Shown piece by piece: positions 1,651 to 41,286 of a stretch of 60,487 bases of DNA. The stretch is from positions 87,199 to 147,685 of the IMG/VR virus record IMGVR_UViG_3300018481_000002. The stretch is one strand, 5' to 3'. Position 1 is the first letter of the stretch. Each line of letters opens with the position of its first letter. The notes beneath the pieces are model-generated. The model ran no database searches. It had not been told where the DNA came from and was given only the letters and a program-made list of their open reading frames with translations. This stretch comes from a virus (Duplodnaviria; Heunggongvirae; Uroviricota; Caudoviricetes). A program made the position numbers and the translations under genes.

Positions 1651-1721
1651 TTGCTCCGGTCGGAATCGAACCGACGGTCTCCGACGTCAGGGCCGGTGAG
1701 TTGCCATTACTCTACAGAGTT
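1651..1721 (-). tRNA. Degenerate tRNA-Gln(CTG)-like gene (probable pseudo-tRNA)
   Basis: Intact D arm (GAGT/ACTC) and T arm (GTCGG-TTCGATT-CCGAC); anticodon stem CCGGC/GTCGG with a 6-nt loop CCTGAC; top 2 acceptor pairs mismatched. Confidence 0.65.
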
Positions 1722-16048: not shown

Positions 16049-16829
16049 CAAGGGCCACTCCACGTACCTGGTGAACACTGCCCACCTGGTCAGGAAGGGC
16101 GACGAACTGGCCGACCTGGCAGCTGACACGACCGCGTCCTGGCAGATCGAGAAGTCGAACCCGTTCATCCAGTGGATCGCTGGGGACTTCGTGGAGTCGG
16201 ACAAGCCGAACTCGAACACTCAGTACTGGACATCCGGTGACCTGGCGATGTCTGAGTACACGATCCAGTACGCGCCACTGAACATGGTCCACAAGTTTCG
16301 GACACCCATCGGTTTCTTCGCGGCCACCAAGACGGTGAAGCTGGAGAAGGACGAGGCCGCCGAAGCTGTGCCGATGAAGATCCAGGCGCTCTCCGGCTTG
16401 TGGACCCACATCTTCCCGTTCGAGTCCGCCCAGGTGGAGGCCGCCGACGATGCTGGGCTGCTGTTCTACTCGATGGAGTGCCGTGGCACCCACCTGAAGT
16501 GCGGCTCTGACGAGGCCCTGGGCCTTGAGGGCTGCGGAGGAGAGTTCGACTACATGAATGTCGACTCCCACTGTGAGCACCTCCAGGAGCGTTCCTCGGT
16601 GCGGCACATCGTGAACCCCACCTTCCGTGGTGGGGCTTTGATCGTTCCCCCGGTGAAGCCGGGGTGGAAGAACTCGTCCGCCAGCATCCTCACTGACTCG
16701 GTGATGCTTGAGGCTGCGGCGTTCGCGGAAGAGAATGAAGCCCAGTTCAACAGTCTGGGTACAGAGATCAGTGCCACCGCTTGGGAGCACCTGATGGCTC
16801 AGGTCGTGGCGTCTGGAAAGGGAAACTGA
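16029..16829 (+). CDS. Prohead (capsid maturation) protease
   Basis: PLNMVH, YSMEC and FRGGALIVPPVKPGW motifs; located between portal and scaffold. Confidence 0.75.
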   Translation: METMIFDKGHSTYLVNTAHLVRKGDELADLAADTTASWQIEKSNPFIQWIAGDFVESDKPNSNTQYWTSGDLAMSEYTIQYAPLNMVHKFRTPIGFFAATKTVKLEKDEAAEAVPMKIQALSGLWTHIFPFESAQVEAADDAGLLFYSMECRGTHLKCGSDEALGLEGCGGEFDYMNVDSHCEHLQERSSVRHIVNPTFRGGALIVPPVKPGWKNSSASILTDSVMLEAAAFAEENEAQFNSLGTEISATAWEHLMAQVVASGKGN

Positions 16830-18617: not shown

Positions 18618-19544
18618 ATGAGTACTGATGTGAAGAAGATGGTTGACTCCTTCGGACGGACCAAGGAGGAGAACAAGGACCGCCTCGCGATCATGGAGGC
18701 GGCCAACGAGGAGGCTCGGGAGCACTGGGATGACCCCCAGTACCGCGCCGAGTTCGCTGCGGACCTGACGGAGTCGATCCTTGAGGGGTTCGACTACGAG
18801 ACGCTTGTCGATCAGTGGATCGAGACTGAGCGCACCGACTTCAACGGACGAATCTTCATCCGTGAGGCTGGCGGTCTCAAGGCGTTCTTCATGGCCCGTG
18901 GTGGCTACATCGAGGCGTCCGAGCTGACTGCTGAGCTGTCCGAGGTTCCTCGCGACATGCTCGGTGTTCACGTGTGGGAGTTCGAGGACAAGTTCCTCAC
19001 GAACTTCGCCGAGTCTGCTCAGACTCTTCGTGATCTCTCGATTCGCCGGATGGACGCGGAAGTTAACCGCCGCATCCACACGGTCTTGAAGGAGGCCCTC
19101 GCGGCTTCCTACACGACCACGGCTGCTGGTATCTCGCAGGCTGCGGTTGACGCCGCCATCGCGCGCGTCCAGGACGAGTCGGAGTCTGGCGAGGTGGTCA
19201 TCGTTGGCCGCCCGACCGTTGTGAACAAGCTGGCTGGCTTCACTGGTTTCGGCAACGAGACTCTTGAGGAGATCCGGCGCAAGGGCATGTTCGGCGTCTA
19301 CCACGGCGCTTCGATCATCACCCTGAAGAACTTCAAGGACGAGGATGGAGTCGCTTACATCCCGAACAACGAGCTGTGGATCATGGCTCGCGACACGGGC
19401 AAGTTCGCGTTCTTCGGCGGCCTGAAGAGCAAGGAATTCATGGAGCTTGACAACTGGTACTGGCACTACCTCGCGCGGCGGGACACCGGCATCATGGTGC
19501 ACCACCCCGAGCGTGCCCACCTGCTGATCGACTCCAGCATCTGA
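18618..19544 (+). CDS. Major capsid protein
   Basis: 308 aa, strong codon bias, GAGGAGG RBS, followed by a strong terminator. Confidence 0.85.
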   Translation: MSTDVKKMVDSFGRTKEENKDRLAIMEAANEEAREHWDDPQYRAEFAADLTESILEGFDYETLVDQWIETERTDFNGRIFIREAGGLKAFFMARGGYIEASELTAELSEVPRDMLGVHVWEFEDKFLTNFAESAQTLRDLSIRRMDAEVNRRIHTVLKEALAASYTTTAAGISQAAVDAAIARVQDESESGEVVIVGRPTVVNKLAGFTGFGNETLEEIRRKGMFGVYHGASIITLKNFKDEDGVAYIPNNELWIMARDTGKFAFFGGLKSKEFMELDNWYWHYLARRDTGIMVHHPERAHLLIDSSI

Positions 19545-19564
19545 GGCTAATCCCCTCGGCATGA

Positions 19565-19601
19565 GAAAGGCCCCCGGTCCTCACGGATCGGGGGCCTTTT
19601 C
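19565..19601. terminator. Bidirectional terminator (MCP operon and leftward GGY-NN array)
   Basis: GAAAGGCCCCCGG...CGGGGGCCTTTT. Confidence 0.85.
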
Positions 19602-19641
19602 CTTGCGCTACCGTTCGCACGCCTCTTGGGCTACCGAACGC

Positions 19642-19733
19642 ACACCTTGCCCTACCTAGCCAGGCCGAACCCGGCCCTGCCTAGCACTGCCTTGCCCAAC
19701 CTAGCCATTGCCTAGCCTGGACTTGCCGAGACC
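19642..19733 (-). ncRNA. GGY-NN pentamer array D (candidate guide RNA)
   Basis: Minus strand: ggtct(c) ggcaa gtcca ggcta ggcaa(t) ggcta ggttg ggcaa ggcag tgcta ggcag ggccg ggttc ggcct ggcta ggtag ggcaa ggtgt. Confidence 0.8.
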
Positions 19734-19736
19734 GAC

Positions 19737-19780
19737 AGAGTATCGAACACTTGAACGAAGGCCAAGTGTCGGGGTACTGT
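19737..19780. promoter_or_regulatory. Divergent overlapping promoters with an SOS-like box
   Basis: Plus: TTGAAC(19751)-18-TACTGT; minus: TTGGCC(19765)-17-TACTCT; box TCGAACACTTGAACGA at 19743-19758. Confidence 0.7.
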
Positions 19781-19785
19781 TCCTT

Positions 19786-19905
19786 CGCTTGGCGTAGCTA
19801 GGCGGGGCTTGGCAGGGCCTGGCACCGCATGGCTTGGCAGAACAAGGCTCGGCCTGGAGGGGCTCGGCTAGGCCCGGCAGGGTGGGGCAAGGCTAGGCAG
19901 GGTAT
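19786..19905 (+). ncRNA. GGY-NN pentamer array A (candidate guide RNA)
   Basis: 24 units in perfect 5-nt register; 19/24 start with GGY and 23/24 have a pyrimidine at position 3. Confidence 0.85.
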
Positions 19906-19919
19906 AACTAGATCAGCGA

Positions 19920-19996
<77 letters not shown>

Positions 19997-20002
19997 AGAC
20001 GA

Positions 20003-20047
20003 GGCGAGGCCGGGCAGGGCCTGGCACCGTGGGGCACGGCAAGGCAG
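20003..20047 (+). ncRNA. GGY-NN pentamer array B (candidate guide RNA)
   Basis: ggcga ggccg ggcag ggcct ggcac cgtgg ggcac ggcaa ggcag, starting 6 nt after the tRNA CCA. Confidence 0.75.
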
Positions 20048-20107
20048 GGGTTCCCCACCCGCCCTAACAGACGACGCTCCTATCTCGACTACCTAGTAGG
20101 AGGCGAC

Positions 20108-20314
20108 ATGAGGGGACTCTTCCCTGAGAAGGACCTGCCCAGAGCGTTGGGTGTGAAGGTCTTCGGTGAGCCCAAGGCGCAGGCTCAGATCAACAGCCCG
20201 GACAAGGCGGGTCCGACCATCGCCAGGGACAAGACGTGCTGGTGTGGCCGTCCGTATCCGCATGACTGGCTGGGCCAGGAGGACGGTGCCGCGCATCCGA
20301 GGTACCCGGACTGA
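20108..20314 (+). CDS. Small hypothetical protein (CWC...H motif)
   Basis: GGAGG RBS; 68 aa. Confidence 0.7.
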   Translation: MRGLFPEKDLPRALGVKVFGEPKAQAQINSPDKAGPTIARDKTCWCGRPYPHDWLGQEDGAAHPRYPD

Positions 20315-20320
20315 TTTCCC

Positions 20321-20358
20321 TCGAACACTTGCACGAGGTGGTTTGTAGCGTCTACAGT
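20321..20358 (+). promoter_or_regulatory. Promoter with an SOS-like box upstream of array C and the RAMP gene
   Basis: TCGAACACTTGCACGA overlapping TTGCAC-18-TACAGT. Confidence 0.7.
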
Positions 20359-20369
20359 GCACACACCAT

Positions 20370-20431
20370 GGCATGGCAGAGGCTCGGCTAAGCGCGGCAC
20401 TGCACGGCCAGGCAGAGGCACGGCAAGGCAA
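20370..20431 (+). ncRNA. GGY-NN pentamer array C (in the 5' leader of the RAMP gene)
   Basis: ggcat ggcag(a) ggctc ggcta agcgc ggcac tgcac ggcca ggcag(a) ggcac ggcaa ggcaa. Confidence 0.8.
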
Positions 20432-20462
20432 CAACCACACATGAAGCCATTGGAGGCTCAAC

Positions 20463-21044
20463 TTGAAGGTAACCATCGAGATTGACGGCACCCAGCCGCT
20501 TCTCATGCACGCAGACACCCTCGCGGACCCGCTGGACCCGCTGACCAAGGAGTTCAAGCGACTCTCCGGGAAGCGGTCCAAGACCGACGAGGACCACGAG
20601 GCCATGGCGGAGAAGGAGTTCCTCGCCAGCCTCTACCTCGATGACGGCGGCGAGATCTGCATCCCCGCAGCCAACATCAAGAAGTGCCTCATCGAGGGAG
20701 GCCGCATCACCAAGTCCGGGGCCAAGATCGAACGTGGCCTCACGCTCCTGGGCATCGACTTCGTCCTGAAGCACACCGGTCCGGCACTCCCGGCTGACCT
20801 GTACCAGGACCCGAAGTTCGTGGACAGGCGTTCCGTGAAGGTCGGCACCGCCCGCACCATGCGTGTCCGTCCCCGCTTCAACGACTGGTCCCTGCGAGTG
20901 GAGTGCGACATCGACCCCGCCGTGTGTTCCATCGATGACCTGAAGGACATCGCGACCAACGCCGGTTCCCTGGTGGGTCTCGGTGACCACCGCAAGATCG
21001 GCGGATACGGACGTTTCGTGGCGAAGGTGAGGAAGAACCCGTGA
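20463..21044 (+). CDS. Stand-alone RAMP / Cas7-like RNA-binding protein
   Basis: Beta1 VTIEIDGTQPLLMH, IPAANIKKCL helix and Gly-rich loop GLGDHRKIGGYGRF; GGAGG RBS, TTG start. Confidence 0.85.
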   Translation: MKVTIEIDGTQPLLMHADTLADPLDPLTKEFKRLSGKRSKTDEDHEAMAEKEFLASLYLDDGGEICIPAANIKKCLIEGGRITKSGAKIERGLTLLGIDFVLKHTGPALPADLYQDPKFVDRRSVKVGTARTMRVRPRFNDWSLRVECDIDPAVCSIDDLKDIATNAGSLVGLGDHRKIGGYGRFVAKVRKNP

Positions 21045-21553
21045 GGCCGTTCGCGCCGAAGGGTGAGCAGCCTGAGTGGCGGATGCTCTACGACCTGGTT
21101 ACGGGTTCGGCTGTAGACACGGTGTTCCCGTACGACGACTTCGACCGGGCGCTTGGTCGGGACTTCCGGGAGAACCGGACCCCCCTGGCCCGTGTACAGA
21201 AGGAACTCCTGCGGGAGGACAAGCGGGTCCTGGTCAACGTACGCGGCGTCGGGTACCGGATCGCTCAGGCTCGGGAGCACGGCGAACTGGCTGTGGGTCA
21301 GCGGCAGCGTGCCCGTCGTGCCGTGGACAAGGGTGTTCAGATCGTTGCTGGCGCTGACCAGTCCTCTCTGACCCCGAAGGAACGGCAGCGGCTGACGGAG
21401 ATCGAGGTCAACCTGCGTGCTCAGGCGAACATGCTTCGCCGGACTGAGGCTCGGGTGGCCGTTTTGGAGAAGTCCGCGAAGCATTCGGACGACCGTCTGG
21501 ACATGCTGCTGGCTGAACTGAAGCGGAAGGGCTTGGTCGAGACGATCGACTAA
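21041..21553 (+). CDS. Winged-helix-like plus coiled-coil protein coupled to the RAMP gene
   Basis: GTGA overlap; wing motif NVRGVGYRI; C-terminal heptads. Confidence 0.75.
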   Translation: MRPFAPKGEQPEWRMLYDLVTGSAVDTVFPYDDFDRALGRDFRENRTPLARVQKELLREDKRVLVNVRGVGYRIAQAREHGELAVGQRQRARRAVDKGVQIVAGADQSSLTPKERQRLTEIEVNLRAQANMLRRTEARVAVLEKSAKHSDDRLDMLLAELKRKGLVETID

Positions 21554-21562
21554 CCTGAGACC

Positions 21563-21656
21563 GAGGGTCTGTGCCCACGGCAGTAGACGGAACCCGAGCT
21601 TGCTACGGTCTTGCTCGGTGTCCGCTGCCGGGGGGCTCACGTGGGCACAGACCCTC
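21563..21656 (+). ncRNA. Long stem-loop RNA candidate
   Basis: Perfect 17-bp inverted repeat GAGGGTCTGTGCCCACG/CGTGGGCACAGACCCTC enclosing further nested stems. Confidence 0.55.
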
Positions 21657-21660
21657 ACTC

Positions 21661-21739
21661 GGGGCAGGATGGGTTCGACAGCGACGTAAGTCCGCATGCG
21701 GGACGCCGCTGGACCAGGGTTCGACTCCCTGCTGCTCCA
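21661..21739 (+). ncRNA. Minimal tmRNA-like RNA (tRNA-like domain only)
   Basis: 5' GGGGCAG-GATGGGTTCGAC; 3' GAC-CAGGG-TTCGACT-CCCTG-CTGCTCC-A; G3:U70 pair; no tag ORF or pseudoknots. Confidence 0.8.
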
Positions 21740-21895
21740 CGGGAGGAGATGCCCGAGAAGGAACCTGGTGTCCAGTCTGGGTCGCTCCCACGCTGAAACA
21801 CGCTGAACCAGGATCCATCCAGAGGGAAAGGCGCAGGTTCTAGACTCCCTGTGCTGGATACGCTGGGGGTCTACTGGCCAGCTCTCCTCTCTCCT

Positions 21896-21968
21896 GCGCC
21901 TTTAGCTCAATTGGTAGAGCAGCTGGCTCTTAACCAGCGTGTTCGGGGTTCGAGTCCCCGAAGGCGTA
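21896..21968 (+). tRNA. tRNA-Lys (CTT)
   Basis: Canonical cloverleaf; anticodon loop CTCTTAA. Confidence 0.95.
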
Positions 21969-21969
21969 C

Positions 21970-22104
21970 GTGAACGAAATCCAGAAGTTTTGGCATCGAT
22001 GGTTCGGGATCGGATGGCCCGACCCTGAGGACATCCACGCCTTGGAACGTGACCTAAGATCCGTTGCCTGGCCAGAAGACGACGACCAGAGGCCCACCGA
22101 CTGA
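21970..22104 (+). CDS. Possible small protein (44 aa)
   Basis: Read manually: MNEIQKFWHRWFGIGWPDPED...; no clear RBS. Confidence 0.35.
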   Translation: MNEIQKFWHRWFGIGWPDPEDIHALERDLRSVAWPEDDDQRPTD

Positions 22105-22116
22105 ACGGAGTCACTC

Positions 22117-22524
22117 ATGGGCTCCGTACTTGTATCCAGCACTTGTCACTACTGCGGGGACAAGGCCACCACTGACGACCACGTGGTTCCCCGGTCCCTG
22201 CTGCCCAAGCCCCAGTCCCTCCTGCCGTACTGGTTCCGCGCCATGAACGTAGTCCCGGCCTGCGCCCCCTGTAACGGTGCCAAGGCCAACCACCGCTCCG
22301 ACTGCCACTGCACCCAGTGCGTACGCGCCTGGGGCTCCGCTGCCGCGCTCTACGGCATCGTTGAGCCTGAGCCGGTGTCCGTGTTGGAACTGCGCCGCGA
22401 ACTGGTCCGTGTGCAGAACCGCAACCGCAAGCGGCAGCGAAACAACGAGAGCAGACGAAGGCGTGTGCGCGAGGAATACAAGAGACGGTTCGGGTCCTAC
22501 CCGCCCTCTCGCGCGCGCCAGTAG
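22117..22524 (+). CDS. HNH endonuclease
   Basis: CHYC...DHVVP...NVVPACAPCNGAK; the 3' end overlaps tRNA-Arg. Confidence 0.88.
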   Translation: MGSVLVSSTCHYCGDKATTDDHVVPRSLLPKPQSLLPYWFRAMNVVPACAPCNGAKANHRSDCHCTQCVRAWGSAAALYGIVEPEPVSVLELRRELVRVQNRNRKRQRNNESRRRRVREEYKRRFGSYPPSRARQ

Positions 22525-22587
22525 CTCAGCGGACAGAGCAACCGCCTTCTAAGCGGATGGTCGCGGGTTCAATCCCCGCCTGGCGTA
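22515..22587 (+). tRNA. tRNA-Arg (TCT)
   Basis: Canonical cloverleaf; anticodon loop CTTCTAA. Confidence 0.93.
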
Positions 22588-22793
22588 CCTCCGGGCTCGA
22601 TCATCACAGACTCCCAACGACCTGCCTTGATCAGCCCTACCCGTCGCTTGCGGATCTCTCCCTCTTCGTTCTCGTACTCCTCTGTGAGCACGATGTTGCC
22701 GTCCTCGTCTTCGCGCCAACCATCGGCCTCACCGAAGACGTCGATGGCCCCTTCGCTCAGATCGTTCGCTGTGTAGCGCACCCGGACTCCCAT
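22569..22793 (-). CDS. Small acidic hypothetical protein
   Basis: 74-aa ORF convergent on tRNA-Arg. Confidence 0.6.
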   Translation of the reverse strand: MGVRVRYTANDLSEGAIDVFGEADGWREDEDGNIVLTEEYENEEGEIRKRRVGLIKAGRWESVMIEPGGTPGGD

Positions 22794-22914
22794 GCCCGAG
22801 GTATCGGCGATTCATTCAGACGGATGTTGGAACCGAAGTTCTCCTGGAACAGGAAAAGTACGTGCACACCTTCCCCGGTGCACGTCAGGGATACGCCAGG
22901 AACAGGAGCAGGAA

Positions 22915-23502
22915 ATGTCTGGATCGATCACCCAGGAAGACAGGGACTTTGTCGAGACCTGGGAGCACATCTCCCCCCAGCAGTGGGGGATCATCCGCTT
23001 CGATGCCCGTGGAGACGAGCGTCCAGAAGTGATCAGTGGTCGTCAGACCTTCAAGATCACCTCGGAGGAGCGCATCGTCACGCAGGACCGGATCCGGCAG
23101 TCTGTGAACGACCCCTTCTTGAACGGGTCGTTCCGACCGGTTGTGGTGCCTGACTCGGTCACCGTGGAGTCCAACCCGAACGCTCTCTCCGATGAGGAGA
23201 TCGTCAGGATCCTCACTGCCAGCGATGTCGCCTGGGAGCAGTGGATGGACACCATCGACTCGGTCGCGACGGTACGCCGGATGATCGACCTCGCTGACGA
23301 CAACGACGACGTGTCAACGAAGCGGTATCGAGAGCTTGAGCGGAAGCTGGAAGCTGTCCGTGGCCGTGTGCAGATCTCCACCAACGACCCGGCGTTGAAG
23401 AGTTTCCTCAGCGACCGCCCGTCGTTGCAGGAGAACAACGCCACGGCTAGCGGCGGAGCGAACCCCCGCCGTCGTGGTGGTCTGTCGTCGGACTACCGCT
23501 GA
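22915..23502 (+). CDS. Virion morphogenesis hypothetical protein
   Basis: AGGAG RBS; first gene of the head-tail joining block. Confidence 0.7.
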   Translation: MSGSITQEDRDFVETWEHISPQQWGIIRFDARGDERPEVISGRQTFKITSEERIVTQDRIRQSVNDPFLNGSFRPVVVPDSVTVESNPNALSDEEIVRILTASDVAWEQWMDTIDSVATVRRMIDLADDNDDVSTKRYRELERKLEAVRGRVQISTNDPALKSFLSDRPSLQENNATASGGANPRRRGGLSSDYR

Positions 23503-32049: not shown

Positions 32050-35000
32050 GTGGCCAGTAAGGACGACTTCTTCGTCACTTTCGGCTCGAACGCCAAGGAG
32101 TGGGCGGCGGGTCTTGAGGCTCAGCTGAAGCCTGCCCGCAAGTCTGTGCAGAACCTTCAGAACCTGCTTGACGCTGCCACGAAGAGCGCTGGTGGCATCA
32201 CTGAGGAGATGTCCCGGGCTCTGGGTCACTCTCTCCCGAAGGACACCAGGCCGCCTCCGGCGACACGGACTCACGTCACCGCTGCTCAGGGGCTTGGGGA
32301 GCTGACGAACGAGGTCGCTGCTGTTGTTGCCGCGTTGAAGACGATCCCTGCGTCGGTTGCCAACGTGAAGCGGAGCCTCACCCAGCACGCGAATGACCTG
32401 GACTCCAACAACCGTGTCCAGCAGCGGCAGGGTGCTGGTGGGTTGTTCCAGCAGGGCAAGGTTTCGTCTGCTGAGAATGCGGTCAACAACTCCTTGAACC
32501 GTCTTCTCAAGGGCGGCATCGACGTCAACATTCCTGACCCTGCACGGCTTGTCCCGCAAATGAACATCCGTTCAGTTGGGATGGACGCGATCCAGAAGTC
32601 TCAGATCGACCGGATCGTGAAGGCCATCGAACGGCAGACCAAGGACCTGACGAAGGCCTTGAAGAACGTGAAGGTCACCGACGGGCCCACGGGCGGAGGT
32701 GGCGGTGGCGGTACTGCCATCGCTGAGACTGCTCCGCTGAAGAACAAGACTGGGAAGAAGCCTTCCACGAAGAAGCTCCCCGAGGTGGTCGAGGCCGAGA
32801 AGGCTTTGGACGCCCGTCGAAAGGAGCTGGTCGACCTTGAGAAGAAGATCGTCGGGCTCACCACGGCGATCTCGGGTGGAGCGAAGGTTGACTCGTCTGA
32901 GTTGGACAAGCTGAAGGCTCAGCGCACCGCGAAGGCGAAGGAAGTTGCTGCGCTGGAGCGGCTGGACACCACCATCACCAGGGGTGACCAGAAGAAGGCA
33001 CGTAGGGCCCAGGCCGCTGCTGAACGTGCAGCGCAAGAGCAGAAGCTGAACGAGGCCCGTGAGCGGGGTCTGTCGGCGTTCAACACGTTGATGGACCCGA
33101 ACTTCGGTATCGGTCAGGTCGGCAAGGGGAAGGGTCTCCTCAAGGGGAAAGACCTTCGGTACATGGCCGATGTCATGTCCACGGTTGGGACACCCGTCAG
33201 TTACGGCAAGAAGACCACCAACGACCAGCTGGTGGAGCGTCTCCTGGCTGGCCGCGCGTCTCACATCCAGGCTTACGGGTCAGTTCCGCCTGACCAGCTG
33301 ACTGGCCGCATCAAGGGGAAGCCTGACCAGATCTCCAAGGCGGTGGTGAAGCTCTTCAACGACATCGAGTCCGCCATCGAGTTGGCTGATGAGCAGATCA
33401 ACGCGAAGGCGATCACCGCGCTGAACACGGCGACTGGTGGTGGACGTGCCAGCGGTATCGGCAAGTCCCGCACCGAGTACGGTGCCGCGTTCTTCGATGA
33501 CGCGTTGCCGTTGTCCCGTGGTGCCGGTGGTCTCACCTCTGAGGTGGACGCTGCACGGAACATCCTGAAGCAGCTGCCTGACATCACCGGGTTCGCCACG
33601 GAGAACCTGCGGCGCAAGAAGTTCGACCCGTACAGCCCGGAGATGATGTCTGGGGTCGAGGGTGGCGGCACTAGGGCCACTGCGTTCCGGCTGCTGATCC
33701 GGGCGTTGCGTGATGAGACGACGAGGATCGACGAGCTCGTCGACACCTACGCGGACTTGAAGCGGTCCATCGATGCGAACGACCCGAAGTCGATCCAGTC
33801 GTACCTGAACCGTTTCGACGCCCGTCGAGAAGAGGGACGTCTCAAGGCAACTGACACCCCGGAGGCTGAGCAGGACGCGATCCGGCGTCTGGCAGCGAAC
33901 CAGCGTGCCATCAACGACATCGAGCGTCAGTATGGCGACTTGTTCAGCGACCCGAAGTTCCTTGAGGGTCGGGAGCGCCGTCGTGATTCCCGCATGGAGT
34001 ATGAGGAGCGGCAGAACCAGGGTCGCTACCAGCTCACCGACTATGACGCTATCCAGCAGGCGTACGGCCAGGCTGTCGTCGGTCTCAGGAACGCCATCGG
34101 TTCCCGCGAGACCATCTCCAACCTTCCTGGTCTGCGATACCACGAGCGTGGCGAGTTCCAGGGCCGTCTGAGCCCGAGGGACCCCCGTGACCGGGCCATC
34201 TCCAACGAAGACCTGAAGACGCTGAACAGCACGTTCTCCCAGTTCCAACGGTCGGCCAGAACTGTCCTGACTGGCGTGAAGAAGGGCGAGACCCTCGACA
34301 CCAAGGGTCTTGCCCAGGCCATGGACTTCATGGAGACGTCCGCGAACAACTTCGCGAACAAGCTGTTCAGCCTGTTCGGTACTGGTCCCACCGTTGAGGG
34401 GCTGATCGGTCAGAAGCCGACCAACGAGACTGTCATCGCTGACGAGACTGAGCGTCTCGCCACCTTGGACAAGTTGGAGCAAGAGCGCGCTCGGAAGATG
34501 AAGGCTGCTCCTGCGGAGAAGTTGGCTCGGGCGGAGTACACGGAGGCGCAGACCAAGGAGCAACTCGCTGCCGCGAAGAAGCGGGAGCGTGAGGTTTCGA
34601 AGCGTCTGACTGAGACGAGTGCTCTGGCTGCTGCGAGCTACGCGCAGCTGACCCAGGCGCAGAAGACTGAGTACGACAAGCATGTGGCGTTGGCTGTTGC
34701 GTTGGAGCAGCAGGCTGATGCGGTTCGTCAGCAGATCTCTGCGCAGAGCAACATCACCAAGCAGGTCAACCCGCAGGGGAAGCTTGAGTACTCCCCGAAC
34801 GAGCTTCCTCCGAGCGCCACCAAGGAGCAGCAGCTTGAGAGAGAGGTCACCAGCGACCTGATCCAGCAGTACGCGCGGCTGAAGGGTGAGGCTGGCGCTG
34901 CTCGCGCGGCTGCTGGTCGCGCAGGTGCGACGGTAACTACGACATCCGTCGAAACCCGGAAGATGACTGCTGCCGAGCGGAAGTACGCCGCGAAGCTGGA

Positions 35001-38000
35001 AGAGTCCATCTCCGCCTTGGAGGCTCGCGACCGAGCCTTGCAGGACGAGGCAAACGCTGTCCGGTACACCAAGCTGCCTTCTGGTGTGATGCCCGGAACT
35101 GAAGGGCAACCCATCAGTCGGCTCCGTGGGCGTAACGCCGCAGCGGACGTTCTGGGTTACGAGCTTGGTACTACAGGCGCTCAAGATGCTGCCAAGAGCC
35201 AACGACAGTTCCGTGCCGAGGCAGCGAAGGTCGAACAGGAACTGCACAAGCTTCAGCGTGAACTCGCTACGTTCAACGCCCAGTTCGACGCCAAGCCTGA
35301 CAACGTCAAGATCGACCGAAAGGCTGGCCTGTACCCCGGGCTGGTGGGTGACCTGGAAGGTGAGGCCAAGGACGCCGCTGAGGCGGTTGACCTTCTCACC
35401 AAGGAACTGCCGGGTCTGGAGAAGGCGACCGTCAACGCCCGGAACGCTGTCGCCCGCGCCGAGAAGGCCAAGTACGCCACCCCAGAGGCACGGTTCGACT
35501 ACAGGACCCAGTTGTACGCGGAGCGCGACAAGCTTCGGAAGGACCAGCCGTACACGAAGGCTGACATCTCTAAGTACCAGTCTGAGTTCGACGCTCTCGG
35601 GTTCAGCAACCAGCAGCGTGGGGCCCTGAGGGGTCAGATCACGAAGGCTGAGAAGAAGGGCGACACTGAGAGGGCCACTGCTCTGCGTGAGCAGTTGCGG
35701 ATCAGGGAGTCTGAGGTCGCTGCTGCCAGGGCGATCCTGGATCAGGCCATCAAGACCCGTGCCCGTCTTGGGCAGATCGACGCCGAGATCAAGAAGACCC
35801 TCTCCATGGATGAGGGCACGTACAAGGGCGACGAGAAGGTCGAGACTCGCACCTCCAACCGTCAGGTGGAGGATACAAACAAGCGTCTGATTGCTGCGAA
35901 GAAGAGGGAGATCGCTGCTGCGGAGGAGAACCGCAAGGCGCTCCTCCAGATCCGTGCAGACGAGAAGGCTCTCCCGAAGGGCGAGAAGCTTGCCCCTGAG
36001 GTGTCGGCTGACCGGAAGGCACGCCAGCAGCAGCCTTGGACCAAGGAGCAGCTCCGGACGATGCGTCGAGAGTTGCGTGACTTGGAGCGCGGCGGTGACG
36101 GCAGCGGGTTCGGGGGCGGTCCTGGTGGCACCGGTACGGCTGGTCGTGGCCCTGGTGGCAGCGACGGGTCGTTCAACATCCTGCGTCAGATCTTGAACCG
36201 GTTGAACGGGATCCACGCCACTCTCCGCAGTGGGTTGGGTAGCGGCACTACCAGGTCGAACGAGCCGACTAGCGCGTTCACTGGTGCTGGTGTCCGCAAG
36301 ACCGCTTCCCCTGAGGAGTTGGCGGCGGCGAAGAGCGACGACGAGGCGACGCGGTTGCGTGCTATCGCTGAGCAGCGTGCCCGTGCGCAGCGGTTTGGTG
36401 GTGCCTCTTCTGCTGAGGTCAAGGCAGCCAACGATGAGCACGCGAAGCGGATCAAGATCACCCGCGACCAGTACCGCGAGAGTCTCCGTCTGGCGCAGGC
36501 GATGGCGACTGTGTCCAAGGAGACCCGCAAGGAAGCTGAGGAACTGCACCGTCTGAACTTGGCTGGTGCAGACAACGCGACCATCGCGGCCCAGCAGGTG
36601 AGGGTCTACAACTCGGTCCAGCGGGATCTTCAGCCTCAGGATCTGCCGTTGACTGCCCGACGTGGCGTGGCGGGCACCATCATCAAGGGTGCCCAGCCTC
36701 GGGTCACTGACAACGAGATCGTTGACATCGAGAAGGCCGCCCAGTCCATGACTGGGTTCCGTGACGTGGGTGCCTCTGCTGCGGAGAACTTCCAGGACGG
36801 GTTCGCCCAGATCTTCCCCGGCAAGTCGTTCTGGTCTCGTGTCATCAACACGACGGGTACGTTCATCGTCCGTAACTTCGCTGCCGGTCTGGTCTTCGGT
36901 CTGACCAACGCGCTTCAGCAGGTGTTGGACCAGGCCATTCAGACTGAGGCGACATTCATCCGGGTGTCAGCGGCGTTGGAGTCCACCAACACTGAAGTTG
37001 GGGGCTTGCGTGGCGAGCTTCAGGCCATCTCCACTGACTACGGTGTCGCCCTCAACGACGTGTACACCACCGCTGCTGGGTTGGCTGGTCTCTTCACCGA
37101 CACTACCGAGCTGGCGGGAGCCACCCGTGTTGTCGCCCAGTTGCAGACCATTTCCGGTGGAGCCCTCAACGCTACGGAAGCTATGGGTGTCTTGGCGTCG
37201 ACACTCTCCGCGTTCCAAGCGCTCCCGGGTGATGACGTTGGAGCCAACCTTCTCCCTCAGGGCATTGAGGGCATGGAACGCGTCGCTGACGTTCTGACGG
37301 TCATCCAGAACCGGTTGGGTACCAACATTGAGGTCACCGCCGAGGGCGTCTCGCGTATGTCTGGTTTGGCCCGGCAGATGAACCTCTCCCTTGAGGAGAC
37401 CGCAGTCTTCACTGCTCAAATTTCGAAGCAGACCAACCAGACCGGTGCGGCAGCTGGTGAGCAGTTCTCTCGTATCCTCGGCGCGCTGTCCACGGGTCGT
37501 GGTCGCGGTGCAGTTGTCGAGGCGATCGGGCCCCAGGCTGAGGAGGCTCTGGCCGCTTCCGACTATGGACAGGTGTTTAGACTCATCATCTCCGGATGGG
37601 ATGACCTGTCCGACGCTCAGAAGCGCAACCTGACGGTGTCTCTTGCCGGGCAGCGACAGGCGGCCGCCTTCAACGCTTTGGTCAACAACGAAACTGCGGT
37701 CCTCAACACGTTGACCCACGCAGAGAACGCTAGTGGTGAAGCCACCGACCGTATGGCCAAGTTGATGGCCACCCTGAACAAGCAGATCGACGTCCTGGGC
37801 ACTAACCTCCAAAACCTGGCATCGAACCTGATCCGGTCTGGTCTGCTGAACTTCCTGGGCATTGTTCTGAAGCTCGCCAACGCGGTCTTCGGCACCATCA
37901 ACAACGGTCTGACTGCGATGAACGACTTCGCAGACAACAACGCCTTCGTCGGGTTCCTGCGCGACACCATCACCACGATGCTCGGATTCGCGGTGGCAGC

Positions 38001-41000
38001 GAAGCTTCTGATGACCGCCCTGAACGGCATCCGGACCACCATGGCCCAGTACCGGAAGAACCCTGCCGGGTTCACCGAGGCCATGGGTGGTCCCATGGGT
38101 GCAACCCACCGTGACCCCTTCGGTGACGCCGCCGAAAAGGAACGCCAGCGACGTACTGGGTTCGGGGCGTACGGAGCCTCTGGGGGGCCAGGGTCCCTCA
38201 CCAGGCAGGGCCAGGACATCAACCGTGCCCCCATCACGCGGGGCGTCGCGTTCGCCCTCGACAAGACCGTGGGTGCTGCCGGTACGGGGCTTGCCAGGCA
38301 GATCACCAACGTGGGCGACAAGGTTGCTGCCAGTGGTAACCGGATGTTCGCAGCCATCGGACGTGCCATCCAACGTGATGGCGCGGCTCTCGGTAACGCC
38401 GCCACAGCCTTGCGCGAAGGAACCGCTGGAGGCAGATTCGCTGGCCTCCAGAACGCTCCCAGCGGCACCTACGGCAGAACCAGCATTCGAGGTGGGCTGG
38501 ACACGTACGCCGCGAGCGGGAACAGGGGTGCAGCGGTCGCCGGGAAGTTGTCGACCAGCCTGAACAAGATGGCTGCCTCTGGTGTCGGTGCCGACGCGGC
38601 GATGATCGCACTTTCGACGGGCATCCTGGCTGTGATGTCCTCCGCCCAGAGGCACGCCCAGATCTCTCGTGAACTGGACGCTGGCTACAAGGCCTCCTTT
38701 GCTGACCCAGCCAAGGCACAGGCTGGACTCACCAACGAGGATCCGTACTTCGGAAAGAATTACGAAGCTTTCGACGAGAACTTCACCCAGTTCCTGGATC
38801 ACGCCAGCAACTGGGACAAGGGCATGGCTCTTGTTGGTGCCCGCTTCACCAACGGCATCCGAGGGTTCTTGGACCCATCCGTGGCTCTCTCGCGGGAGTT
38901 CGGTACCACCAGAGACTTCAGCGACACCTACGGGCGCGATGAGGCGCAGGCCATCAACGACAGGGCAACCGCAGGGCTGAAGAGCTTCTCTGGGAGGGAG
39001 GGCGTCACCAGTAAGGGGTTGCTGGCCTTGCAGGAGAGCTACAACCAGGAACTCATGGACGCTGCCACGCGGATCATGGAAGACAAGGAATCTTCAGACG
39101 CTCAGAAGCAGGCCGCTCTCGCCATGTTCGAGCAGGCTCGCTACAACATCGGGGAGACCACCAACAACCTGCTGAGCACGCTCGACGGTATGGGCGGCTT
39201 GATCGCGCTGACCACAGACCAGATCCAGAACATCACCGAACTTACCTCGACGCTGGCCTCGACCCAGGGCCTTACCCAGGTTGCTGGCGTGGATCTGCGT
39301 CCCACCATCGAGGCGATGATGGAGGAGACGGGTGCCCAAGAAGGGACCAGGCTCTACAGCTTGTTGGAACGTCTCGGTGAGGGAGGTAACGACTCCGTTG
39401 ACGTGGCGATCCTGAACCGTCAGATCTTGCGTGAACAGGTCAAGGAGCTCCAGAACATCTGGCTGACCAAGTTGCGTTCTGGTTCCGCTGAGCCAGATGA
39501 ACTGGACAACATCAAGAGCCAACTCCAAGGTGCCATGGCTCAACTGGCCTCCTCCAACGACCAAGTCATCGACGGACTGTTGGAGAGCGGACGTCTGATG
39601 GCTGGCGAGCAGGCCAACGCTGGCAACTTCGAAGGTGCCATGGACACCTACGCCGACGCCATGCGTGCTGCTGAGAGGAAGTTCGAGCGGAACGCCCGCA
39701 AGGTCCGCGAGGAGCAGGAGAAGCAGGGCGACTTCGCTGGCCGTGTTGGTGGGTTCCTGGGCGGCATCGGTGAGGGCCTCGGTGGGCTTGCGGACAGGCT
39801 TCGTGGGGAACGTCCCCTGCCTCAGAGGCGGCAGCGGCGGGTACAGCGGCCACCGGCAACGAGTGGTCCTGCTAGTGGTGCCGCCAGCTTCCTGGATAGT
39901 CTCCGCGACCGGCTTTCGGGTGCGGAAGATGCGCTTACCCCGGAGCCGGAGCCGCCCAACGCTCAGGAGGAGAAGAAGGGCAACGCTGAACGGCGCAAGC
40001 ACAACGCCAGGATGCAAGCCATCTTCCAGGCGATGGCTGACCTGGCGATCTTCAACGCCACCAAGGACATCACCTTGCAGATCGCGCAGACTGCTGACGC
40101 TGGCCTCCGGGCCGCTCTGGAGAGCGACAAGGCCAGGATGGTCGCTGATCTGACTGGAACCTTGGCGTCTGGTGGTGCGATCCCTGGTATCGACAAGGAT
40201 CTGGCTGAGATCTGGGGTCCGATCTCCATCGACTACAAGGAGGTCTTCGACTCGCAGGTCAACGCTGAGTCGGCTCGGGTGTCGGCGGTTCAGGCCCAAG
40301 AGGCTGCGGCTGACCAGGCCAAGGCTGATGCTGCGACGGCCCGCCAGGACGCGGCAGCCCTGCGTCAGGCTCAGCTTGGTGTGAGCCAGGCTTGGGCGGA
40401 CGCTCGTGGCGACGCTGTGGCTTCGGCCAGGGTCCAGGTGGCGATGGCGAAGGCCGCGATGGCTGCTGCCAGGGCTGAACTTGCTGCCGCTACCACCGCC
40501 TCTGAAAGCGCCCAGGCGCGTATCGCGATCCTGAGTGCCCAGGCCCAGCTGATCGGGGCTATGGCGGCGGTCCAGCAGGCTCAGACGGACCTTGTGCAGT
40601 CGCAGTATGAGGTGAGCATCGCGCTCGCTGAGGCTGCCGGTAAGACGGTCCTCGCTGCCCAGCGGAGCCTCGCGGCGGCTCGTGCAGCGTTGAGTTCGGC
40701 CATGAAGCGGTCGGGTGGCAAGGCAACCGCTGAGGTGAACGCGGCGAAGGCCGAGGTCATCCGCGCTGAGGCTGCTGCCCGTGACGCGAAGCTTCAGGAT
40801 CAGCTCGACACCATCGACTTCAACCTGGAGATGGACAAGATCACCGCATCGTCTGCCATCGCTGCGCTGCGGAACATCTTGAAGACGAACGAGCTGACCA
40901 AGGAACAGCGCCGCTCCCTCATGCTCCAGATCAAGGGCATGGAAGAGGAGATGGCGGACTCCCAGTGGAACTTCGGGAACGTCAAGCTCCCCACTCCGTA

Positions 41001-41286
41001 CCAGATGCGCCGGTATGGGGAGGAGCAGTTGAAGGCTGCTGGGGTTGCTGGGTCCGGTGGCGGCAAGCGGCCTCCGCGTCAGCGGTTCGATGACGGTGGT
41101 GTGGCGGACTTCTCCAACGGGAACAAGAACAAGAAGTTCCCCAGTGAGGTGTCCATGTCGGAGACCACTCAGAACATCAACTTCTACGTCAACGGCGCGG
41201 ACACAGCGAAGGTCAAGAAGATCATCGAGGATGTGACCGGCAAGAACAGCCGCACCGTGACCACGAGTCCCCGTAGGAGGGTCTGA
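32050..41286 (+). CDS. Tape measure protein (3078 aa)
   Basis: Ala-rich helical giant ORF after the chaperones; TMP core-like segment (TEATFIRV...STDYGVALNDV...SGALNATEAM). Confidence 0.92.
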   Translation: MASKDDFFVTFGSNAKEWAAGLEAQLKPARKSVQNLQNLLDAATKSAGGITEEMSRALGHSLPKDTRPPPATRTHVTAAQGLGELTNEVAAVVAALKTIPASVANVKRSLTQHANDLDSNNRVQQRQGAGGLFQQGKVSSAENAVNNSLNRLLKGGIDVNIPDPARLVPQMNIRSVGMDAIQKSQIDRIVKAIERQTKDLTKALKNVKVTDGPTGGGGGGGTAIAETAPLKNKTGKKPSTKKLPEVVEAEKALDARRKELVDLEKKIVGLTTAISGGAKVDSSELDKLKAQRTAKAKEVAALERLDTTITRGDQKKARRAQAAAERAAQEQKLNEARERGLSAFNTLMDPNFGIGQVGKGKGLLKGKDLRYMADVMSTVGTPVSYGKKTTNDQLVERLLAGRASHIQAYGSVPPDQLTGRIKGKPDQISKAVVKLFNDIESAIELADEQINAKAITALNTATGGGRASGIGKSRTEYGAAFFDDALPLSRGAGGLTSEVDAARNILKQLPDITGFATENLRRKKFDPYSPEMMSGVEGGGTRATAFRLLIRALRDETTRIDELVDTYADLKRSIDANDPKSIQSYLNRFDARREEGRLKATDTPEAEQDAIRRLAANQRAINDIERQYGDLFSDPKFLEGRERRRDSRMEYEERQNQGRYQLTDYDAIQQAYGQAVVGLRNAIGSRETISNLPGLRYHERGEFQGRLSPRDPRDRAISNEDLKTLNSTFSQFQRSARTVLTGVKKGETLDTKGLAQAMDFMETSANNFANKLFSLFGTGPTVEGLIGQKPTNETVIADETERLATLDKLEQERARKMKAAPAEKLARAEYTEAQTKEQLAAAKKREREVSKRLTETSALAAASYAQLTQAQKTEYDKHVALAVALEQQADAVRQQISAQSNITKQVNPQGKLEYSPNELPPSATKEQQLEREVTSDLIQQYARLKGEAGAARAAAGRAGATVTTTSVETRKMTAAERKYAAKLEESISALEARDRALQDEANAVRYTKLPSGVMPGTEGQPISRLRGRNAAADVLGYELGTTGAQDAAKSQRQFRAEAAKVEQELHKLQRELATFNAQFDAKPDNVKIDRKAGLYPGLVGDLEGEAKDAAEAVDLLTKELPGLEKATVNARNAVARAEKAKYATPEARFDYRTQLYAERDKLRKDQPYTKADISKYQSEFDALGFSNQQRGALRGQITKAEKKGDTERATALREQLRIRESEVAAARAILDQAIKTRARLGQIDAEIKKTLSMDEGTYKGDEKVETRTSNRQVEDTNKRLIAAKKREIAAAEENRKALLQIRADEKALPKGEKLAPEVSADRKARQQQPWTKEQLRTMRRELRDLERGGDGSGFGGGPGGTGTAGRGPGGSDGSFNILRQILNRLNGIHATLRSGLGSGTTRSNEPTSAFTGAGVRKTASPEELAAAKSDDEATRLRAIAEQRARAQRFGGASSAEVKAANDEHAKRIKITRDQYRESLRLAQAMATVSKETRKEAEELHRLNLAGADNATIAAQQVRVYNSVQRDLQPQDLPLTARRGVAGTIIKGAQPRVTDNEIVDIEKAAQSMTGFRDVGASAAENFQDGFAQIFPGKSFWSRVINTTGTFIVRNFAAGLVFGLTNALQQVLDQAIQTEATFIRVSAALESTNTEVGGLRGELQAISTDYGVALNDVYTTAAGLAGLFTDTTELAGATRVVAQLQTISGGALNATEAMGVLASTLSAFQALPGDDVGANLLPQGIEGMERVADVLTVIQNRLGTNIEVTAEGVSRMSGLARQMNLSLEETAVFTAQISKQTNQTGAAAGEQFSRILGALSTGRGRGAVVEAIGPQAEEALAASDYGQVFRLIISGWDDLSDAQKRNLTVSLAGQRQAAAFNALVNNETAVLNTLTHAENASGEATDRMAKLMATLNKQIDVLGTNLQNLASNLIRSGLLNFLGIVLKLANAVFGTINNGLTAMNDFADNNAFVGFLRDTITTMLGFAVAAKLLMTALNGIRTTMAQYRKNPAGFTEAMGGPMGATHRDPFGDAAEKERQRRTGFGAYGASGGPGSLTRQGQDINRAPITRGVAFALDKTVGAAGTGLARQITNVGDKVAASGNRMFAAIGRAIQRDGAALGNAATALREGTAGGRFAGLQNAPSGTYGRTSIRGGLDTYAASGNRGAAVAGKLSTSLNKMAASGVGADAAMIALSTGILAVMSSAQRHAQISRELDAGYKASFADPAKAQAGLTNEDPYFGKNYEAFDENFTQFLDHASNWDKGMALVGARFTNGIRGFLDPSVALSREFGTTRDFSDTYGRDEAQAINDRATAGLKSFSGREGVTSKGLLALQESYNQELMDAATRIMEDKESSDAQKQAALAMFEQARYNIGETTNNLLSTLDGMGGLIALTTDQIQNITELTSTLASTQGLTQVAGVDLRPTIEAMMEETGAQEGTRLYSLLERLGEGGNDSVDVAILNRQILREQVKELQNIWLTKLRSGSAEPDELDNIKSQLQGAMAQLASSNDQVIDGLLESGRLMAGEQANAGNFEGAMDTYADAMRAAERKFERNARKVREEQEKQGDFAGRVGGFLGGIGEGLGGLADRLRGERPLPQRRQRRVQRPPATSGPASGAASFLDSLRDRLSGAEDALTPEPEPPNAQEEKKGNAERRKHNARMQAIFQAMADLAIFNATKDITLQIAQTADAGLRAALESDKARMVADLTGTLASGGAIPGIDKDLAEIWGPISIDYKEVFDSQVNAESARVSAVQAQEAAADQAKADAATARQDAAALRQAQLGVSQAWADARGDAVASARVQVAMAKAAMAAARAELAAATTASESAQARIAILSAQAQLIGAMAAVQQAQTDLVQSQYEVSIALAEAAGKTVLAAQRSLAAARAALSSAMKRSGGKATAEVNAAKAEVIRAEAAARDAKLQDQLDTIDFNLEMDKITASSAIAALRNILKTNELTKEQRRSLMLQIKGMEEEMADSQWNFGNVKLPTPYQMRRYGEEQLKAAGVAGSGGGKRPPRQRFDDGGVADFSNGNKNKKFPSEVSMSETTQNINFYVNGADTAKVKKIIEDVTGKNSRTVTTSPRRRV

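Follow-up and report, generated by a model that had tools for sequence, protein, structure and literature searches.

The phage genome and its accessory island

The DNA analysed here (the window) is a stretch of 60,487 nucleotides, which forms the last 60 kb of a complete IMG/VR virus record of 147,685 bp. The genome has direct terminal repeats of 123 bp and a G+C content of approximately 61%, and it encodes a terminase, the large terminase being 41% identical to that of a mangrove-soil phage. No close cultured relative of the phage was found. In addition, a tyrosine integrase (PF00589, 99.3 bits) is encoded at genome positions 16083–16598 on the minus strand, and given this gene the phage may be temperate. 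Four tRNA genes are present in the genome: Leu-CAA, Met-CAT, Lys-CTT and Arg-TCT. A further, weak tRNA match of 39 bits, which is above the Rfam cut-off, lies at window positions 1651–1721 on the minus strand. Its acceptor stem ends in two mismatched pairs and the region of the anticodon arm carries a deletion; the match is not called by ARAGORN and may be a degenerate or unusual tRNA. Separately, one open reading frame of 3,078 amino acids occupies window positions 32050–41286 on the plus strand.

The element under study is located in an accessory island together with tRNA genes. The features of this island are as follows, where TLD denotes the tRNA-like domain of tmRNA and R1 and R2 are covariance models described below:

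19546–22920, plus strand: lineage-specific accessory island of 3.4 kb, holding the mini-tmRNA, three tRNAs, an HNH endonuclease and two ORFs
19920–19996, plus strand: initiator-like tRNA-Met (CAT), from ARAGORN and Rfam (65.5 bits, with a mismatch at pair 1:72)
21563–21656, plus strand: very stable hairpin with perfect arms of 17 bp (−70.2 kcal/mol, z −6.59; 0/200 shuffles as stable)
21661–21739, plus strand: TLD-only mini-tmRNA gene of 79 nt including the discriminator A, matched by RF00023, R1 and R2; its pattern is expected by chance 0.00 times
21896–21969, plus strand: tRNA-Lys (CTT), 156 nt downstream of the mini-tmRNA, from ARAGORN and Rfam
22117–22524, plus strand: HNH endonuclease ORF between tRNA-Lys and tRNA-Arg (PF01844, 21.6 bits against a cut-off of 21.4; PHROG HNH families)
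22515–22589, plus strand: tRNA-Arg (TCT) at the end of the island, from ARAGORN and Rfam

The order within the island is the initiator-like tRNA-Met, two ORFs (PHROGs 4652 and 5926), the hairpin, the mini-tmRNA, tRNA-Lys, the HNH endonuclease and tRNA-Arg. The neighbouring ORFs gave no known function in Pfam or PHROGs, and a search for relatives via the upstream ORF (20463–21044) returned none. The tRNA-Met has a C1·A72 mismatch atop its acceptor stem and a GGG/CCC run in its anticodon stem. The hairpin, which has a structured loop of 66 nt and is unique in the genome, begins 10 nt past the stop codon of the ORF upstream, and 4 nt lie between its end and G1 of the mini-tmRNA. It may terminate transcription of the upstream genes or serve in processing of the RNase III type. 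A scan beside the mini-tmRNA gene found neither a sigma-70-like promoter nor an intrinsic terminator, and the 3′ spacer (21740–21895) has no significant structure (z −1.63) and no Rfam match.

The extent of the island comes from a comparison with 21 related phage loci, which were found via a conserved protein encoded at window positions 18618–19544 and are 66–87% identical in that protein. Where the flanks are present in these relatives, the counterparts of window positions ~19545 and ~22925 are only 220–470 bp apart, which identifies 19546–22920 as a lineage-specific insertion. The mini-tmRNA is absent from 21 of the 21 related loci and is therefore dispensable for the phage lineage. The whole records of the five largest relatives, including one of 144 kb that is 98% complete, also lack it. 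Other tRNAs are found at the same site, which is hypervariable and flanked by a conserved gene on either side, in other relatives (Arg-CCT; Trp and Met; Gln, Met and Pro), and the mini-tmRNA behaves as phage tRNA genes do, being accessory, mobile and variably present.

Sequence and structure of the mini-tmRNA

The whole element (21661–21739, plus strand) reads GGGGCAG-GATGGGTTCGA-CAGCGACG-TAAGT-CCGCATGCGG-GA-CGCCGCTG-GAC-CAGGGTTCGACTCCCTG-CTGCTCC-A, and it is divided into the following parts:

21661–21667, plus strand: 5′ strand of the acceptor stem, GGGGCAG, which forms 7/7 pairs with 21732–21738 and has G3 at 21663
21668–21678, plus strand: D-loop analogue GATGGGTTCGA (as RNA, GAUGGGUUCGA) with no D stem, aligned to the RF00023 consensus GAucuGGaUUCGAC
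21679–21686, plus strand: 5′ strand of the P2a helix, CAGCGACG, which pairs with 21704–21711 through seven pairs and one A·C mismatch
21687–21691, plus strand: A-rich 5′ bulge UAAGU (family consensus NAAR, from family alignments and motif counts)
21692–21701, plus strand: P2b capping hairpin CCG-CAUG-CGG, common to phage DS6A (CCGCACGCGG), with 3/3 pairs covarying in the family
21704–21711, plus strand: 3′ strand of the P2a helix, CGCCGCUG, the partner of 21679–21686
21712–21714, plus strand: GAC linker, which together with G21711 gives the tmRNA GGAC motif before the T arm (RF00023 alignment)
21715–21731, plus strand: T arm CAGGG-UUCGACU-CCCUG with 5/5 pairs
21732–21739, plus strand: 3′ strand of the acceptor stem, CUGCUCC, and the discriminator A, with U70 at 21736 and A at 21739

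A sequence-only reading made before this analysis had described a mini-tmRNA with its parts in non-permuted order, and its anatomy is borne out. The tmRNA-type 5′ end GGGGCAG without a D stem, the GAC, the perfect T arm (5/5 pairs) and the fully paired acceptor stem (7/7) with G3:U70 and discriminator A are all found, in an order that is not permuted. The P2-like helix CAGCG/CGCTG around a 23-nt region is also present and extends further, to eight positions with one A·C mismatch. P2a, the bulge and P2b stand where a tRNA has its anticodon arm. The third acceptor pair is G21663:U21736, which is the G3:U70 pair recognised as an alanine identity element for alanyl-tRNA synthetase (AlaRS). CCA is not encoded, as CGG follows the discriminator, and the three neighbouring phage tRNA genes likewise lack an encoded CCA.

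The comparison with the Rfam tmRNA model, which that reading had proposed as a check, supports the assignment. RF00023 matches 21661–21742 at 55.6 bits (E 3.8e-19), the gathering score being 47, and this is the single tmRNA-like match in the phage genome. Here, the D-loop analogue carries the tmRNA hallmark GGNUUCGAC and the T loop is the tmRNA-type GUUCGANUC loop, both aligned at high posterior probability. The alignment spans model positions 1–374, of which 304 are deleted with 13 nt in their place, and the earlier statement that the message and pseudoknots are missing thus holds. A pattern built on the architecture gave one match in the window and none in 100 shuffles.

The 79 nt contain no messenger module, that is, no resume codon, tag reading frame or stop codon, and they offer no sequence from which the pseudoknots PK1–PK4 could form. 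As all of these are lacking, the mini-tmRNA is unable to do the messenger half of trans-translation. A tag frame of zero length, with the UAA in the bulge (GUAAG) as a stop codon supplied in trans, was considered and rejected as a family feature, as any stop triplet is present in the bulge of only 43 of 100 family members. It is also disfavoured by the position of the bulge, only 8 bp from the TLD.

A canonical tRNA-Ala was rejected as well: the element has no D arm and no alanine anticodon arm, ARAGORN is silent and the best match in the Rfam tRNA clan is tmRNA. ARAGORN calls neither a tRNA nor a tmRNA at 21661–21739. A plain minimum free energy fold did not recover the tRNA-like fold and the stability of the element is ordinary (z −1.29); this fold being uninformative, the support for the element comes from homology and covariation and not from folding energy.

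A family of phage copies and its covariation

Relatives of the element were sought in a viral contig collection with a degenerate pattern, which fixed only GGGG, UCGAC, the T loop and CUCCA and which returned at least 120 loci. A narrower scan for the acceptor type GGGGCAG gave 41 loci, only six of which are among the first 120 listed, and this small overlap of the two scans (6/41) indicates a family of at least several hundred contigs. More than 150 mini-tmRNA loci with 123 distinct sequences were collected. In all of the listed loci (at least 120) there is a register in which the acceptor stem is paired 7/7 and the T stem 5/5, where the search pattern had fixed only four acceptor pairs (1–4, including G3:U70) and no T-stem pair. 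The discriminator is A in all family members and the GAC linker is nearly invariant in the alignments. UCGAC is also invariant, but this was fixed by the search pattern.

The 123 distinct sequences listed include a short class of approximately 62–65 nt, which has a P2 hairpin only, and a main class of approximately 75–82 nt with P2a, bulge and P2b, to which the window element and that of DS6A belong. CCA is encoded in 36 of these 123 sequences, and a tRNA gene is within 500 nt in 23 of the 152 loci listed. The nearest relative of the window element among the matches listed is 84% identical. The exact-sequence pattern of the element was not found in viral contigs, and megablast and blastn searches of 50,697 phage records gave only short T-arm matches. 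One complete phage contig of 135,953 bp (IMGVR_UViG_3300027749_000047) has two different mini-tmRNA copies, at L085:6175–6254 and L175:8192–8271; their flanks differ and their P2b hairpins differ by compensatory changes, CCGCATGTCGG versus CCACACGTTGG.

Two covariance models were built. The first (R1), made from 18 members, recovered 98 full-length copies at 43–92 bits and gave 88.5 bits for the window element as compared with approximately 27 bits for genuine tRNA-Ala genes; tRNA-Ala genes and the ends of bacterial full-length tmRNAs together fall at 25–28 bits. The second (R2), made from 17 other phage copies with the window sequence excluded, gave 83.5 bits (E 1.6e-19) for the window element and 65.7 bits for DS6A, while the controls scored 14–15 bits (the window's own tRNAs) and 23.6 bits (the end of the full-length tmRNA of phage Kumao). 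In the 144-kb relative described above, the single weak match to R1 (25 bits) lies at L147:1501–1649 (G001:C1, ~134.47–134.62 kb). This tRNA-like sequence has a T arm and a perfect GGUGGCG/CGCCACC acceptor stem and is not called by ARAGORN, which places a tRNA-Pyl with the suppressor-type anticodon CTA directly after it.

The pairing of the proposed helices was evaluated across 100 family members, in an alignment that was fitted to the model and in which acceptor pairs 1–4, including G3:U70, were fixed by the search pattern. Standard pairs occupy 96.6% of cells as compared with 67.1% in shuffles, none of 500 shuffles being as high, and controls with slid partners are paired in 39–54% of cells. 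In the T arm, 100% of cells are paired. Changes on both sides occur in 17 of 22 pairs: 6/7 in P2a, 3/3 in P2b, 4/5 in the T stem and 4/7 in the acceptor stem, where they are chiefly in pairs 5–7. These compensatory changes, seen across more than 100 phage copies, indicate selection on the RNA fold.

These data bear on two readings in which the element is not a working RNA gene. In the first, a full-length phage tmRNA has lost its middle and what is left is a decaying, non-functional pseudogene. Full-length tmRNAs do exist in phages (Kumao; Bxz1-like phages, PMC4131195) and close relatives of the phage are without the element, and yet this reading is very improbable: 123 distinct sequences, found in diverse phages, have the same compact architecture and are intact in their pairing, the two paralogous copies on one phage contig differ by compensatory P2b changes, and the window copy is intact in its acceptor, T and P2b stems, with one A·C mismatch in P2a only.

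In the second, 21661–21739 is no RNA gene and is instead an attP site, or its remnant, that came from the 3′ end of an ssrA or tRNA gene of the host; an att-site remnant was the outcome that the sequence-only reading had itself named as telling against it. The phage does encode a tyrosine integrase, and tmRNA genes are frequent integration targets (PMC11915505). Nevertheless, an att fragment holds only the 3′ part of its target, whereas both halves of the TLD are present here, with the 5′ acceptor strand, the D-loop analogue and a perfectly paired acceptor stem. In addition, the sole integrase is ~92 kb away, and compensatory changes run through more than 100 phage copies. A scan of bacterial genomes with the T arm and the 3′ strand of the acceptor stem matched only tRNA-Ala genes and full-length, low-GC Bacteroidales tmRNAs, giving no bacterial mini form and no clue to the host; the Bacteroidales concerned are unlikely hosts. 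Integration is thus an extremely improbable origin, and both the att-remnant and the pseudogene readings are rejected.

With a high degree of confidence, 21661–21739 is a real mini-tmRNA gene. Its sequence is best explained by a functional phage gene whose product, a tag-less mini-tmRNA of the DS6A type, consists of the TLD only and is predicted to be expressed and processed.

Proposed role during infection

The SmpB family (PF01668) is absent from the complete phage genome and also from five other mini-tmRNA phages that are at least 92% complete. As there is no phage gene for SmpB, the RNA must use the SmpB of the host. A serine recombinase, a CCA-adding enzyme, Pth and an RF-1/ArfB homologue were likewise sought in the phage genome and not found. 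When all ORFs of the phage were compared by tblastn with 120 mini-tmRNA-bearing loci, only three weak matches resulted. The phages that carry the RNA are thus almost without protein similarity to this one, and no conserved protein partner of this phage travels with the RNA.

The main reading, to which a probability of approximately 0.45 is given, is that the RNA is a dominant-negative competitor of host tmRNA and acts by titrating SmpB. Competition of this type would be expected of an RNA that lacks the whole messenger module. The mini-tmRNA would be transcribed together with the neighbouring tRNA genes and matured by host tRNA enzymes, with RNase P acting at the 5′ end and 3′ trimming followed by CCA addition. 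Host SmpB would bind the mature RNA and host AlaRS would probably charge it with alanine. SmpB would then be titrated and stalled ribosomes may also be occupied by the RNA, such that proteins made at the time of infection would escape the ssrA degradation tag. All of these steps, from expression and maturation through SmpB binding and charging to the host effect, are predictions.

Published work on related molecules is in line with this mechanism. SmpB binds the TLD, and a 63-nt TLD construct has been crystallised with SmpB (PMC3929946). In addition, strong inhibition of tmRNA is reported for a TLD-like molecule, chargeable or not, and is perhaps due to SmpB titration (Mao et al. 2009, as relayed in PMC4131195 and PMC11915505). 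A pure SmpB sponge needs no charging, yet the acceptor stem and G3:U70 are strictly conserved, which hints at a role for charging; the invariance of G3:U70 is partly built in by a search pattern that fixed G3 and U70. The dispensability of the element in its lineage, where it is absent from all 21 related loci, also speaks against titration.

If charging does matter, the RNA could be a rescuer that adds no tag. Here, the alanine-charged RNA would enter stalled ribosomes with host SmpB and EF-Tu and take over the nascent chain, adding one alanine or, through repeated rounds, several, after which the peptidyl-RNA would drop off or be hydrolysed. Ribosomes would be freed during infection and phage proteins would not be marked for degradation. 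A TLD fragment together with SmpB is active on ribosomes in vitro, where it supports A-site entry, peptidyl transfer and even template-free polyalanine synthesis (Shimizu and Ueda 2006, as relayed in PMC3929946). Selection for charging would fit the 7/7 acceptor pairs and the discriminator A of all members, although the first four pairs were fixed by the pattern. Mitochondrial and some plastid tmRNAs have no tag frame and are nonetheless conserved together with SmpB (PMC11915505). The rescuer has difficulties of its own, however. As no stop codon is offered there is no defined release step, the phage has no Pth or ArfB-like factor, and the in vivo effect of a similar molecule, as summarised in PMC4131195, is inhibition of tmRNA independent of chargeability. 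Tag-less rescue is rather doubtful as the function. Under either titration or tag-less rescue, ssrA tagging during infection would be avoided.

A different set of targets is host defence or RNA-decay factors that recognise the TLD of tmRNA, for which the RNA would be a decoy or cofactor. Candidates are RNase R, which is a partner of tmRNA–SmpB, the defence proteins of CoCoNuT types II and III-A, which have SmpB-like domains, and tRNA- or tmRNA-cleaving nucleases. In CoCoNuT, the CnuH proteins have SmpB-like OB folds for which tmRNA binding is predicted (PMC11090510). AcrIIIA1, an anti-CRISPR of phages, works with tRNA fragments and with tmRNA fragments of ~90 nt that bind RNase R (PMC11662646). 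The location of the gene, in a variable accessory island with an HNH endonuclease, is typical of phage–host conflict genes. Even so, such a role is quite improbable, since no defence or anti-defence gene was identified beside the mini-tmRNA and nothing in the sequence separates a decoy from SmpB titration.

The functional interpretation in the sequence-only reading is partly supported. Its two main ideas, SmpB sequestration and rescue without tagging, are both already in the literature for the TLD-only RNA type. Its third, a decoy for tmRNA-cleaving toxins, received no direct support.

Nearly all bacteria have trans-translation, which is a target for drugs. If phages use a compact RNA to block or hijack it, this would show how viruses handle the translation quality control of the host and also the flood of non-stop mRNA that comes from RNase-type defences, and it would provide a ready-made inhibitor scaffold. 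In a broader reading, which is unlikely, phage mini-tmRNAs are a large and nearly unannotated class of counter-defence RNAs, in which the bulge and P2b may add a function beyond soaking up SmpB. The window copy would then be recently acquired, mobile anti-defence cargo in a tRNA/HNH island. Such RNAs could possibly act on ribosomes that mRNA-cleaving host defences have stalled, where nascent chains would be released or would receive untemplated alanine tails. They could also possibly be decoys or triggers for RNase R or for CoCoNuT defence proteins, which have SmpB-like domains.

The window adds three points to what is known of these RNAs. First, the gene is movable cargo in a hypervariable tRNA island and is missing from 21/21 related loci. 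Second, there is strong covariation for the module of P2a, bulge and P2b that is common to DS6A. Third, mini-tmRNA genes are overlooked by ARAGORN and in GenBank records such as that of DS6A, so that phage annotations under-report them; mini-tmRNA genes are common but unannotated in phages.

Comparison with known systems

The TLD-only phage RNA is not a new type and has been known since DS6A (2009, 2014 and 2025). A tmRNA of "Mycobacterium phage DS6A (TLD only)" is listed by Hudson, Lau and Williams 2014 (PMC4131195). It corresponds to tmID 11587 of the tmRNA Website and to Mao et al. 2009 (RNA Biol 6:355). The 2025 tmRNA database paper repeats the DS6A form and adds CDS-less plastid forms of ~65 bp (PMC11915505). 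The same Rfam model located the DS6A element at JN698994:28478–28560 with 43.2 bits. It is unannotated in the GenBank record and sits between gp33 and the DNA polymerase III gene.

The two RNAs have much in common. Both are phage-encoded, ~80 nt long and not permuted, with a complete TLD, G3:U70 and a discriminator A, and in both a short hairpin with a CCGCAYGCGG cap closes P2 and an A-rich bulge is present. Neither has a tag frame, pseudoknots or an encoded CCA, they align end to end, and both are recognised by R1 and R2. They differ in sequence, with ~60% identity over the aligned stretch and compensatory changes in the P2a and T stems; in P2a, for example, CAGCG/CGCTG in the window corresponds to CCGCCG/CGGCGG in DS6A through paired changes. 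Their carriers differ also, as DS6A is a 60.6-kb phage of Mycobacterium tuberculosis and the window phage is uncultured and 147.7 kb in size. The copy in DS6A lies by gp33 and the DNA polymerase III gene, whereas that in the window lies in an accessory island with tRNA and HNH genes.

Standard tmRNA (SsrA, RF00023) shares with the window RNA the acceptor stem with G3:U70, the GGNUUCGAC loop, the GGAC junction, the T arm and the base of P2. This applies also to its full-length phage forms, which occur in Bxz1-like phages (PMC4131195) and in Kumao, where the RNA is 407 nt. The window RNA differs from these by the loss of 304 of 374 model positions and with them the resume codon, tag frame, stop codon and PK1–PK4. 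The CDS-less organellar tmRNAs, known from jakobid and oomycete mitochondria and from the ~65-nt plastid genes of Mallomonadaceae (PMC11915505), resemble the phage form in having little beyond the TLD, no tag frame and a presumed SmpB partner. Many of them, however, have a permuted or highly derived form, and a dedicated SmpB occurs alongside them, whereas the phage form depends on that of the host. Unlike the organellar tmRNAs, the phage form is likely to be antagonistic rather than housekeeping.

The closest counterparts made in the laboratory are synthetic TLD fragments, such as the 63-nt TLD of T. thermophilus (PDB 2CZJ; PMC3929946), in which the 5′ and 3′ ends of tmRNA are joined via a capped P2a. 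Fragments of this kind are bound by SmpB, accept alanine and show activity on ribosomes in vitro (PMC3929946). They are laboratory constructs, whereas the phage RNAs are a natural class of ~79 nt, which adds to this design a conserved A-rich bulge and the P2b hairpin.
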